From Escherichia coli (lineage in GTDB: Bacteria; Pseudomonadota; Gammaproteobacteria; Enterobacterales; Enterobacteriaceae), in the NCBI RefSeq assembly GCF_030013595.1, contig NZ_CP122768.1: a stretch of DNA of 64,000 nucleotides. One strand, given 5' to 3'. The position numbers were made by a program, and so were the translations under genes. The notes under the pieces were generated by a model. It saw only the letters and a list, made by a program, of their open reading frames with translations, was not told the DNA's origin and searched no databases. This document shows, piece by piece, positions 23,288 through 52,074 of the stretch; positions within the stretch are counted from its first letter, which is position 1; each line of letters opens with the position of its first letter.

Positions 23288-23312
23288 AAACGCCCGCATA
23301 TGCGGGCGTTCA
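23288..23312 (-). terminator. Rho-independent terminator of uspA
   Basis: Hairpin cgcccgca-ta-tgcgggcg followed on the minus strand by a U-rich tract. Confidence 0.65.
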
Positions 23313-49175: not shown

Positions 49176-51374
49176 TTATTTCCTGCGCAACAGCCTTAAC
49201 GCATTCGCCGTCACCAGCACCGTCGCACCGGTATCTGCCAGCACTGCCAGCCACAGTCCGGTCATCCCTAACAGCGTCGTGACGAGGAAAACACCCTTCA
49301 GCCCCAGCGCAATAGTGATGTTCTGGCGGATATTGGCGTGAGTGGCGCGTGCCAGTTCAATCATTTGCACCAGGCCGCGCAGGTGGTTATGGGTTAATGC
49401 TGCATCGGCGGTTTCCAGCGCCACGTCTGTGCCGCTACCCATTGCAATCCCGATGGCGGCAGCTTTCATCGCTGGCGCGTCGTTAATACCATCACCGACC
49501 ATCGCCAGCGGCGCATGTTGATTCAGCTCGGTCACCGCTTTGACTTTATCTTCCGGCAACAGGCCCGCTTTAAATTCCAGCCCCAGTTCCCCGGCGATTG
49601 CCGCCGCTGCGCGTGGATTATCGCCGGTGAGGATCACTCCTTTAACCCCCAGCGCGTTCAGTTCACTGATAGCAGTTGCAGCATCGGCGCGCAGGGTATC
49701 CTGCAACGCAATGATACCCAGCACGTCATCATTACGTACTACCAGCACTACCGTTTGCCCGGCGCTTTCCAGTTCATTAATCAAACCAGCAAATGCAACA
49801 GCCGGATGTTTTCCGGCAGCGCATATCAACACGCGCTCACCGTTAACCTGCGCTTCAATGCCAGACCCAACCAGCGCCCGCTGTGATTGGGCGGCGGGAA
49901 TGGCGAGTTCAGCAACCTGTGCTTCGCGCACAATGGCTTGCGCCAGTGGATGCGTCGCGCCTTGCTCGACCGCCGCTGCCAGTGTCAGCAGTTCGGATTC
50001 ACTAATACCCGTTGCCGGATGAATCGCGGTAACGCGCGGTTTACCGACGGTCAGCGTACCGGTTTTATCAAACGCCACCTGGGTAACACGACCCAGTTGT
50101 TCCAGCGCCGCTCCGCCTTTAATTAACGCCCCACGACGCGCTGCTGCTGCCAGCCCGGAGGTAATCGCCGCAGGCGTTGAGATAACTAACGCACACGGGC
50201 AGCCAATCAGCAGCAGCGTCAGCCCTTTATAAATCCACTCCTGCCAGCTGGCGGCAAACAGCAGCGGTGGCACCAGCGTCACCAGCAGAGCGACGGCCAT
50301 AATCGCGGGCGTATAGATACGGCTGAAACGGTCGATAAACCGCTCAATGGGTGCGCGACGCTCTTCGGCTTCTTCGATCAGTTTCAGAATCCGGTCAATG
50401 GCGCTGGCACCCGGTTCTGACAGCACTTCCAGCGTTACCAGACGGTCTACGCTGGTGGCACCAGCAGGGACTTTATCGCCCGTTGCGCGCTCCACCGGAA
50501 TGGATTCGCCGGTCAGGGCGCTTTCATCAAAACTGGCAAACGGTGAGAGCAGTTTACCGTCGGCAGGCAAACGTCCACCTGCGGCGACTTCAATCACATC
50601 GCCAGGGCGCAGGCTGTTAATCGCCACCTCTTCACGCTCACCGTTACGCAGGCGCGTGGCGGTTTCCGGTTTCAGCGCCATTAACGCGCTAACGCCCTGA
50701 CGCGCGCGGCTGGCGGCCCAGCCTTCCAGTCGTTCACCAATCAAAAACAGCAGCAACACCATCGCAGCTTCAGCCGTTGCGCCAATAAACAGCGCACCAA
50801 TAGCGGCTACGCTCATTAAGGTTTCAATGGCGAAGTAGCTGCCGGATTTGATCAGCCGTAATGCCTGACGAGCAATCGGGTACAGCCCAACCAGCGTGGT
50901 CGCGATAAACGCCAGTTGCCCGAACGGATGATTGAACTGCTCCAGCCCCCAACTGATTGCCATCAACACGATTAGCGTAATCAGCGGCAAATTCTCTTTC
51001 AGGCGTGATGTTTGCGGTTCGTCGGCGGACTGTTCATCGCGCAGGGAATAGCCCGCTTTTTGCACCGCAGATTCAACTTGTGCACGAATGTCATTGTCGG
51101 CATCGACCACCAGTTTTTCGGTGGCGAACAACACCTGCACCTGATTCACGCCTGCAAGCTGGCGCACGGCATTTTCTACCTTGCGCGCACAGGCGGCGCA
51201 GTCCATGCCGCTGACTTTCCAGCTATAGCGGGTGCCGGAGACGTTTTCAGAGAGCGTTGGCGTGCTGGAACATGCGCCGTCGCAGCAACAGTCGTTGGCG
51301 TTCTGTACCGTGGTTAGCGGTTTGAACGCAGCAAATTGAGGGGCTTTCTTGCCGTGATTGTCAGGAGTCGACAT
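49176..51374 (-). CDS. zntA: Zn/Cd/Pb-translocating P-type ATPase
   Basis: 732 aa with GMDCAAC metal-binding motif, CPC transduction motif and DKTGTLT phosphorylation site. Confidence 0.95.
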   Translation of the reverse strand: MSTPDNHGKKAPQFAAFKPLTTVQNANDCCCDGACSSTPTLSENVSGTRYSWKVSGMDCAACARKVENAVRQLAGVNQVQVLFATEKLVVDADNDIRAQVESAVQKAGYSLRDEQSADEPQTSRLKENLPLITLIVLMAISWGLEQFNHPFGQLAFIATTLVGLYPIARQALRLIKSGSYFAIETLMSVAAIGALFIGATAEAAMVLLLFLIGERLEGWAASRARQGVSALMALKPETATRLRNGEREEVAINSLRPGDVIEVAAGGRLPADGKLLSPFASFDESALTGESIPVERATGDKVPAGATSVDRLVTLEVLSEPGASAIDRILKLIEEAEERRAPIERFIDRFSRIYTPAIMAVALLVTLVPPLLFAASWQEWIYKGLTLLLIGCPCALVISTPAAITSGLAAAARRGALIKGGAALEQLGRVTQVAFDKTGTLTVGKPRVTAIHPATGISESELLTLAAAVEQGATHPLAQAIVREAQVAELAIPAAQSQRALVGSGIEAQVNGERVLICAAGKHPAVAFAGLINELESAGQTVVLVVRNDDVLGIIALQDTLRADAATAISELNALGVKGVILTGDNPRAAAAIAGELGLEFKAGLLPEDKVKAVTELNQHAPLAMVGDGINDAPAMKAAAIGIAMGSGTDVALETADAALTHNHLRGLVQMIELARATHANIRQNITIALGLKGVFLVTTLLGMTGLWLAVLADTGATVLVTANALRLLRRK

Positions 51375-51416
51375 GGCATCCTCCGGTTAAGTTTTTTCTC
51401 ATTAACCGAAGGATAC

Positions 51417-51438
51417 ACTCTGGAGTCGACTCCAGAGT
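51417..51438 (-). promoter_or_regulatory. ZntR (MerR-family) operator within the zntA promoter spacer
   Basis: Perfect 22-bp palindrome actctggagtcgactccagagt between -35 TTGACT and a -10-like hexamer with 20-bp spacing, upstream of the zntA start. Confidence 0.75.
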
Positions 51439-51447
51439 CAAGTTTTA

Positions 51448-52074
51448 TCAGAGATACAGCGAGCGGACGATGAGGAAATGACCGGCAAAGTAGCAGGCCG
51501 CAGCAATCGCGTTATCCGCACGGAAGCGGCGGCGATAGTGGCTCCCCAGCCAGACAAAGTTACTGATAAACAGCAACGAAGCGCCAACAAACGCAGAGAG
51601 CGCCGGAGCGGTCGGACGGAAGAACCAAAGTTCACCTGCCAGCCACACCATCACCAGCGTCATGCCGATAAACGTGCAGATAGGCCAACGGTACTCTTCC
51701 AGCCGCGTCCAGATAATCGCCAGTAACAGCGCACCCAGAACCAGCAACACCAGTGGCAGAGGCCAGAAGAAAGAGAGCGTCATCTGACTGGCGAAATAGA
51801 TGGTGTACAGCAGGTGCGAGAGGAAAAACGCGCCGATGGCGTACATCAGACGTTGACGTGGCAACAGGGTTAGCGCATCGCCCAGCAGTGAGGCGCACAG
51901 CCCCGCCAGCACCAGATAGCTAATGGCGTCGAACATCGGCGCTTGCCAGGCCAGTAACAGCAGGAGAAGAAGGGTTAACGGTTTAAACACCCAGCGTTGC
52001 CAGGTTGGCCCACGATACGATGCATCCACAGATAGCCATGCGGAAAGACAGACAGCGATAAACGACCAAAGCAT
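51448..52074 (-). CDS. yhhN: Inner membrane protein YhhN
   Basis: 208 aa polytopic membrane ORF. Confidence 0.8.

Follow-up and report, generated by a model that had tools for sequence, protein, structure and literature searches.

The question raised by this locus is what controls zntA, a gene that starts shortly behind a co-directional neighbour, and what part a perfect palindrome in the gap between the two genes plays in that control. The locus lies at 51375-51447 of the window, by which we mean the whole 64,000-nucleotide stretch of Escherichia coli DNA that was analysed. A first-pass annotation had taken it for the zntA promoter, reading TTGACT and TATCCT on the minus strand across a 20-bp spacer that it called typical of the MerR family, together with a perfect 22-bp palindrome for the regulator ZntR. 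In the order in which an RNA polymerase travelling from yhhN would meet them, the elements are these:

51448..52074, minus strand: yhhN, 208 aa, the co-directional upstream gene (from the list of open reading frames; yhhN/lysoplasmalogenase in K-12 and other genomes)
51450..51448, minus strand: yhhN stop codon TGA
51441..51436, minus strand: -35 hexamer TTGACT of the zntA promoter, PzntA (direct reading; the same in K-12)
51417..51438, no strand: ZntR operator, 22-bp palindrome ACTCTGGAGTC/GACTCCAGAGT, equal to the published ZntR consensus
51435..51416, minus strand: 20-bp spacer ctggagtcgactccagagtg between -35 and -10 (direct count)
51415..51410, minus strand: -10 hexamer TATCCT (direct reading)
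51403, minus strand: expected transcription start, an A, the 7th nt past the -10 (inferred from the usual sigma-70 distance between -10 and +1)
51384..51380, minus strand: zntA Shine-Dalgarno sequence GGAGG, 5 nt ahead of the ATG (direct reading)
51374..51372, minus strand: zntA start codon ATG
49176..51374, minus strand: zntA coding sequence, 732 aa, Zn(II)/Cd(II)/Pb(II) P-type ATPase (NCBIfam NF033775)

The downstream open reading frame matched NF033775 over residues 1-732 of 732 with 1448 bits against a cutoff of 1240, and RefSeq labels identical loci yhhN and zntA, so that 51375-51447 is the complete 73-bp yhhN-zntA intergenic region. This region was 100% identical to that of E. coli K-12 MG1655; in a 161-bp alignment to MG1655 only 2 differences were found, both in yhhN (of 88 coding positions). 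The naming of the promoter therefore holds, since the gene behind it is zntA by NCBIfam and the intergenic region is that of K-12, and the comparison with the characterised K-12 promoter that had been proposed as a check gave identity from end to end. Nor was there any mismatch to the defined zntA operator, the 22-mer being equal to the published consensus (PMC1526738). The strain of the window is nevertheless not K-12. A 701-bp stretch that takes in the coding flanks was 95-99% identical to most E. coli genomes and reached at least 99% in just 48 of 5425 complete genomes, whereas the 73-bp intergenic region was at least 99% identical in 5369 of the same 5425. That the short region is kept so much better than the longer stretch indicates purifying selection on it, and the regulatory region is, judging from these alignments, more constrained than the genes beside it. 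No ZntR homolog was found in the 64-kb window. In K-12, zntR lies about 167 kb from zntA. Of 5426 complete E. coli genomes, 5425 carry zntR, and judging from the species it is very likely present in this strain too, outside the window.

The optimal spacer of a sigma-70 promoter is 17 bp, and that of PzntA is thus overlong. As expected from this, PzntA did not appear in a standard sigma-70 scan in which spacers of 16-18 bp were allowed. Only one other pair of the form TTGAC[AT]-N19/20-TAnnnT occurs in the 64-kb window, at 60274 on the plus strand, and no palindrome accompanies it. The -35 of PzntA follows the yhhN stop codon after a gap of 6 bp, and the -10 stands 35 bp ahead of the zntA ATG. 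Direct reading and counting on the minus strand bore out TTGACT, TATCCT and the 20 bp between them. The description of this spacer as typical of the MerR family had to be corrected, however: the usual length in the family is 19 bp, and 20 bp is a peculiarity of ZntR. The literature agrees for the most part, since the K-12 promoter has been described with TTGACT as its -35 and ZntR as the MerR-family exception with a 20-bp spacer (PMC3431237), and 20 bp is also given by PMC7911910, while PMC9189660 gives 19 bp for PzntA, where the direct count with TTGACT and TATCCT is 20.

The palindrome itself is composed of 11+11 nt with 100% complementarity and no gap, its dyad centre falling between 51427 and 51428, exactly as perfect as the first-pass annotation had it. 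It overlaps the final 3 bp of the -35 and takes up 19 of the 20 bp of the spacer. The ZntR site has been defined as a 22-bp palindrome with the consensus ACTCTGGAGTCGACTCCAGAGT, placed inside the 20-bp promoter spacer (PMC1526738), and PMC3431237, citing Brocklehurst 1999 and Outten 1999, describes DNase I protection by ZntR across such a region. No second match to the operator turned up in the window at up to 3 mismatches, and 100 dinucleotide shuffles gave 0 matches. By an analytic estimate, 0.015 perfect palindromes with a half-length of at least 11 are expected in 64 kb, and the window has two, the ZntR operator and one at 23289-23310. The latter is trailed by TTTTGCTTTTT on the minus strand and is therefore an ordinary intrinsic terminator.

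To follow the operator across species, we scanned a species-level genome collection with the 16-bp operator core alone. Hexamers and spacing were left free, and they thus form an independent test. The scan listed 120 stretches, from which Salmonella, Yersinia and Serratia are missing, and all figures given here are figures among the matches listed. At least 64 core sites had a ZntA homolog starting at most 400 bp downstream. In 63 of the 64 listed zntA loci, the 22-mer was unchanged, TTGACT was present, and a -10-like hexamer stood exactly 20 bp on (TATCCT in 31, TATGCT in 20, CATACT in 4 and another TAnnnT in 8). The exception, L081 from a Phycisphaerales MAG, has CTCGAC in place of the -35 and TAATCT at the -10 position. 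The other 63 listed loci come from about 25 enterobacterial genera, including Citrobacter, Enterobacter, Klebsiella, Raoultella, Kluyvera, Kosakonia, Pluralibacter, Trabulsiella, Pantoea and Erwinia. Among them, 29 consecutive bases are invariant, made up of CTTGACT, the dyad and GTG, and these are followed by TA and then by a variable -10 interior, while the sequence upstream of the -35 varies. The Shine-Dalgarno sequence is kept as GGAG(G/A) or GGAAG in the listed orthologs, and the gap between the yhhN stop codon and the -35 measures 3-8 bp in nearly all listed Enterobacteriaceae loci.

The core alone says less. Outside the zntA context, CTGGAGTCGACTCCAG occurred with MerR-type promoter geometry in 39 of 56 listed loci, in 33 of which TTGAC directly adjoins the core, giving a 19-bp spacer, while the remaining 6 show the 20-bp geometry; the 17 further listed occurrences are without promoter geometry, and about 70 chance matches to the core are expected in a collection of that size. 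As such, the 16-bp core is, from these counts, not diagnostic of ZntR. What supports the assignment here is the complete 22-mer, together with a spacer of 20 bp, the position ahead of zntA and the sequence identity with K-12.

We conclude that the locus is almost certainly PzntA, the sigma-70 promoter of zntA under the MerR-family regulator ZntR. The anatomy, the match with K-12, zntA as the downstream gene and the deep conservation of operator and register are observed; ZntR binding to the identical sequence and its Zn-dependent activation come from the literature. The flip of PzntA from repression to activation by zinc has been measured (PMC9189660), no ZntR operator other than PzntA is known in E. 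coli (PMC4507017), and the promoter is reported under the control of ZntR only (PMC9189660, PMC4507017). For MerR-type promoters in general, a spacer of 19-20 bp places the -10 too far off and at the wrong angle. Once its ligand is bound, the dimer puts a kink of about 90 degrees in the centre of the dyad and undertwists the DNA there; the -35 and -10 come about 7 angstroms closer together, the phase angle falls by 72 degrees, and RNA polymerase sits on the DNA face opposite to the dimer (PMC9909328). At PzntA, a ZntR dimer binds the 22-bp dyad, which occupies the stretch from the -35 to the -10. With 20 rather than 17 bp between them, the hexamers are too distant for sigma regions 4 and 2 and do not face them in phase, hence a low basal activity, and apo-ZntR on the dyad keeps the activity of PzntA low. 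By analogy, binding of Zn(II), Cd(II) or Pb(II) would make ZntR kink and undertwist the operator centre, and this distortion would shorten and rephase the spacer. RNA polymerase on the opposite DNA face could open the -10, and transcription would begin a few bases downstream, as expected at A51403. Among structures, ZntR is represented by 1Q08 only, which is without the DNA-binding domain and accordingly gives no ZntR-DNA structure, while CueR has been solved bound to DNA (4WLW) and to RNA polymerase (6LDI), and structures are available for other relatives too. The distortion mechanism for ZntR thus draws on biochemistry and on analogy with its relatives.

Besides the operator, the region holds a second inverted repeat, which in RNA is predicted to fold the promoter back onto the ribosome-binding site of zntA. 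Its parts are:

51416..51376, minus strand: predicted hairpin, with 5' arm GUAUCCUUCGGUUAA at 51416..51402, loop at 51401..51391 and 3' arm UUAACCGGAGGAUGC at 51390..51376
51361..51372, minus strand: zntA codons 1-5 (the G of the ATG plus TCGACTCCTGA), nearly repeating the centre and right half of the operator

The 5' arm takes in the -10 and the stretch directly behind it, and the 3' arm spans the Shine-Dalgarno sequence. The hairpin alone has a minimum free energy (MFE) of -20.9 kcal/mol (z = -6.4). Codons 1-5 form an inverted repeat with the left half of the operator (51436..51425; 92% complementary), and an outer helix is predicted in which this left half pairs with the AUG G and codons 2-5 (51372..51361). 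For the 91-nt RNA from the yhhN stop codon to codon 5, the MFE was -37.1 kcal/mol (z = -7.1), a stability reached by 0 of 200 shuffles; an RNA starting just past the -10 was as stable as its shuffles (z = 0.02). In the window's hairpin, 4 of 4 Shine-Dalgarno positions are paired with an unpaired probability of 0.00, and opening the stretch from the Shine-Dalgarno sequence to the AUG was computed to cost 20.2 kcal/mol in the read-through RNA versus 7.1 kcal/mol in the RNA from the expected +1. Because the 5' arm holds the -10 hexamer, most of the arm must lie ahead of any start from PzntA; transcripts begun there would lack it, and the hairpin could form only in RNA that comes from upstream. 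A terminator scan found no T-tract terminator between yhhN and PzntA on the minus strand, no Rfam family matched 51200-51650 at E <= 1, and a literature search found no paper on such a structure for zntA.

When the orthologous segments were folded, z was below -3 in 51 of 52 distinct listed segments, with a median z of -6.0, and 3-4 of the 4 Shine-Dalgarno positions were paired in nearly all listed Enterobacteriaceae. The structure given above had 88.8% of its cells paired among the listed orthologs, against 28-57% in controls with slid partners. Double changes occurred at 4 pairs, and the covariation score was reached by 0 of 500 shuffles; G-U wobbles were found at three pairs, in 7-9 listed sequences each. 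Compensatory variants include CUUCC/GGAAG in Pluralibacter, where the Shine-Dalgarno sequence itself is altered, GGGU/ACCC in the Klebsiella group and CCGCG/CGCGG in Trabulsiella. The compensatory changes are confined to a few clades and thus represent few independent events. Between read-through RNA and RNA from +1, the opening cost differed by a median of 9.7 and by more than 2 in 62 of 64 listed loci. The unpaired probability averaged over Shine-Dalgarno sequence and AUG in the long RNA gave a mixed picture across loci, while the measures based on the Shine-Dalgarno sequence alone and on opening energy showed a strong effect in the TATCCT-type lineages and a weak one in the TATGCT-type. From these folding predictions, the fold-back hairpin is probably real, and the fold-back from promoter to ribosome-binding site is the only part of the locus that may be new.

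Both repeats could be read in other ways. The operator palindrome might serve mainly as a terminator or RNA-stabilising hairpin, for yhhN or for an antisense RNA on the plus strand, instead of as a protein site. It would form a 9-bp stem with a 4-nt loop in RNA and starts 9 bp past the yhhN stop codon, and a simple scan returned a terminator-like site on the plus strand, with the stem at 51417-51438 followed by CAAGTTTTAT. On the yhhN strand, however, the stem is followed by GUGUAUCC, which has no U tract, and the local fold of the palindrome is unremarkable (z = -1.24). The plus-strand T run derives from bases upstream of the -35 that are unconserved between genera, and no plus-strand gene ends there, the preceding 2.2 kb being filled by zntA. 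Moreover, the 22 bases are invariant over about 25 genera among the listed loci without compensatory variation, which points to a site of protein recognition rather than an RNA stem, and PMC1526738, PMC3431237 and PMC4507017 document the binding of ZntR to the sequence. An intrinsic terminator as the main role was rejected for the missing U tract on the yhhN strand and the unconserved T run on the plus strand, and we consider a mainly RNA-level role of the palindrome highly improbable. The inverted repeat past the -10, in turn, might be a DNA site for a second dimeric regulator rather than an RNA structure. It is centred near +10, its inner arms in most genera other than E. coli read TAATGA...TCATTA and resemble half-sites of a Fur box, and yhhN-zntA of Y. 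pestis fell in a Fur-like expression cluster (PMC2231364). Yet the spacing of the arms is unlike that of a Fur box, the inner arms are absent in E. coli, PzntA of E. coli is reported to be regulated by ZntR alone (PMC9189660, PMC4507017), and the G-T wobble tolerated at three pairs, in 7-9 sequences each, is disfavoured in a DNA palindrome. A second regulator seems very unlikely here. A Fur box in the leader was rejected, as the half-sites match and the spacing does not, and so was a second promoter using TATCAT in the leader of other genera, for which no -35 stands at 17 bp and whose motif is absent in E. coli.

A further reading adds to the explanation by a ZntR promoter and does not replace it. 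In read-through RNA, the -10 region would sequester the zntA Shine-Dalgarno sequence and so insulate translation of zntA against transcripts from yhhN. The anti-Shine-Dalgarno sequence CCUUC/CCUCC plus CGGUUAA would fold onto the ribosome-binding site of zntA, and the left half of the operator could base-pair with the AUG and with codons 2-5. Ribosomes would translate the read-through RNA poorly, leaving it exposed to termination by Rho or cutting by RNase III, and the only source of ZntA would be the transcripts that ZntR activates, which begin past the 5' arm. The G-U wobbles fit a zntA-sense RNA rather than a DNA palindrome. When the upstream sequence was shuffled in the 33 TATCCT-type loci, the opening cost dropped to 8.7, and 3 of 396 shuffles reached the observed value. 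In nearly all listed Enterobacteriaceae the yhhN stop codon is separated from the -35 by 3-8 bp. This close spacing and the lack of a T-tract terminator on the yhhN strand of the window suggest read-through, and in arrays of Y. pestis yhhN-zntA behaved as one co-expressed unit (PMC2231364). There is also a precedent, in that IS10 hides the translation signals of its transposase in transcripts from external promoters (PMC13181058, citing Davis, Simons and Kleckner 1985). On the other hand, RNAalifold on a MAFFT alignment from -10 to ATG returned an empty consensus structure. The effect was weak in the 19 loci of TATGCT type (Enterobacter, Kluyvera), with an unpaired probability of the Shine-Dalgarno sequence of 0.25 vs 0.18 and an opening cost of 10.9 vs 7.1-8.2 after shuffling, a value reached by 13-28 of 228 shuffles, and the Erwinia locus showed no effect. 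Some of the complementarity would be there in any case, given that GGAG/CUCC occurs in the operator and that CCGG is self-complementary. Furthermore, the operator's own hairpin forms earlier in transcription and would compete with the outer helix. Weighing the two sides, we regard translational insulation by the fold-back as a tentative hypothesis, possible on the folding models but on balance rather unlikely.

The promoter-operator of PzntA and ZntR is already known and is found here in an E. coli strain other than K-12; the finding matters only as the correct annotation of the single known ZntR target of E. coli, to which the comparison across genera adds a clean phylogenetic footprint. PzntA is a textbook case of a promoter activated through distortion of its DNA, and many biosensors for zinc, cadmium and lead are built on it. 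If the fold-back acts as proposed, it would account for a tightly regulated promoter standing directly behind a co-directional gene without a terminator, and it would keep a pump that could deplete the cell of zinc under strict control of ZntR. PzntA reporters that include upstream transcription would then be translationally silenced. It would also place an inhibition like that of IS10 in a core metal-homeostasis gene, with promoter elements forming the inhibitory arm.

Set beside known systems, the locus has the same -35, spacer, -10, dyad and leader as PzntA/ZntR of E. coli K-12, with no differences in the regulatory region. PmerT under MerR (Tn501, Tn21) and PcopA under CueR (E. coli) likewise have a dyad between -35 and -10 and an overlong spacer, and PmerT shares the -35 TTGACT (PMC3431237). 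In MerR-family promoters, as in PzntA, one dimer both represses and activates through DNA distortion (PMC9909328). PmerT and PcopA differ from PzntA in a spacer of 19 bp instead of 20 (PMC3431237), in their half-site sequences and in the metals. The promoters that carry the core in other phyla (Actinobacteria, Chromatiales, Paenibacillus and others) share the operator core and the distance from the core to TAnnnT, but mostly have a 19-bp spacer, have CC/GG as outer half-site bases where ACT/AGT is found here, and stand before genes other than zntA, namely those of aldo-keto reductases, MerR proteins, HMA-domain proteins and thioredoxin-like proteins. As for the predicted fold-back, its nearest parallel is IS10/Tn10, where sequence upstream of the element's own start is complementary to the ribosome-binding site, as the folding models suggest for PzntA, and where only outside transcripts can form the inhibitory hairpin, as would hold for the predicted zntA structure. 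The two would differ in that zntA is a housekeeping metal-efflux gene and not the IS10 transposase, and in that the 5' arm at zntA would be its own -10 and operator.

By direct count in the window (51410-51441), the spacer between TTGACT and TATCCT of the ZntR-controlled zntA promoter (PzntA) is 20 bp long, as also given in Permina 2006, Hobman 2012 and Baya 2021, whereas it is 19 bp according to Parisutham et al. 2022 (PMC9189660); the mismatch is probably due to where the hexamers are drawn. Besides the ZntR operator, the window holds one other perfect 22-bp palindrome and, besides PzntA, one other TTGAC[AT]-N20-TAnnnT pair:

23289-23310, perfect 22-bp palindrome AACGCCCGCATATGCGGGCGTT
60274, plus strand, TTGACT-20-TATCAT pair

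On the minus strand, the palindrome is followed by TTTTGCTTTTT and lies directly past the end of a minus-strand ORF; it is a typical intrinsic terminator. The spacer of the pair at 60274 contains no palindrome, and the pair is therefore probably a chance occurrence.

Comparing 51100-51800 with other genomes, we found that the window strain is not K-12. This segment matches that of the pig isolate HCP5S3_I2 (NZ_CM149870.1) with 100% identity; for most E. coli genomes the identity is 95-99%. Despite the divergence of its flanks, the 73-bp region between yhhN and zntA does not vary in about 99% of E. coli genomes. A predicted hairpin lies in this region:

51376-51416, minus strand, predicted RNA hairpin with GUAUCCUUCGGUUAA (the -10 hexamer and following bases) as one arm and, complementary to it, UUAACCGGAGGAUGC (the Shine-Dalgarno region of zntA) as the other

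The hairpin has a predicted energy of -20.9 kcal/mol (z = -6.4). Among the matches listed, 51 of 52 orthologous segments keep it, and compensatory changes occur in its arms. For the alignment of orthologs between the -10 hexamer and the ATG, RNAalifold returned no consensus structure, and the hairpin effect is weak in the TATGCT-type lineages (Enterobacter and Kluyvera). As modeled, the hairpin would form only in RNA reading through from yhhN, the co-directional gene upstream.

The operator centre and right half, GTCGACTCCAGA, are repeated in zntA codons 1-5 as aTGTCGACTCCTGA (51361-51372). This copy is exact (ATGTCGACTCCAGA) in many genera, including Enterobacter, Klebsiella, Kluyvera and Raoultella, and differs at synonymous sites in Citrobacter. 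The codons are predicted to pair with the operator left half (51425-51436) in read-through RNA, and they may also act as a weak additional ZntR half-site.

In most non-Escherichia genera (leaders of L003-L121 from the genome scan, e.g. GGTTAATGAGAAAATTATCATTAACC), the inner arms of the hairpin are TAATGA...TCATTA, and TATCAT and ATTATCA are present; the window leader has none of these elements. The motifs look like Fur-box half-sites and a -10-like element, and yhhN-zntA of Y. pestis has been grouped with Fur-regulated genes (PMC2231364). A Fur box in these leaders was rejected, as the half-site spacing is wrong.

In two stretches from unclassified Enterobacteriaceae (L041, 14280-14295; L103, 3718-3733), a near-ZntR operator, TTGATT-CTGGAGTCGACTCCAGAGTC-TACATT/TACCCT, has the 20-bp geometry and precedes not zntA but a gene for a small secreted protein (MKKGQMLMIALLAQSLVLPAWA...). 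Some enterics may have a second ZntR-type target here. The 16-bp operator core CTGGAGTCGACTCCAG was found, among the matches listed, in MerR-type promoters of Actinobacteria, Chromatiales, Paenibacillus, Acidobacteria and others:

L012, L018, L019, L023, L034, L065, L071, L083, L096, L113 and others, loci with the 16-bp core in MerR-type promoters

In most of the non-zntA promoters listed, TTGAC abuts the core, giving a 19-bp spacer. The downstream genes encode aldo-keto reductases, MerR-family and HMA-domain proteins, thioredoxin-like proteins and a periplasmic protein with a AHDPIFGIGPHVL motif. Since CTGGAGTCGACTCCAG serves MerR-type promoters with such other cargo, the half-site is common to a broader subgroup of the MerR family whose cargo is not related to zinc.
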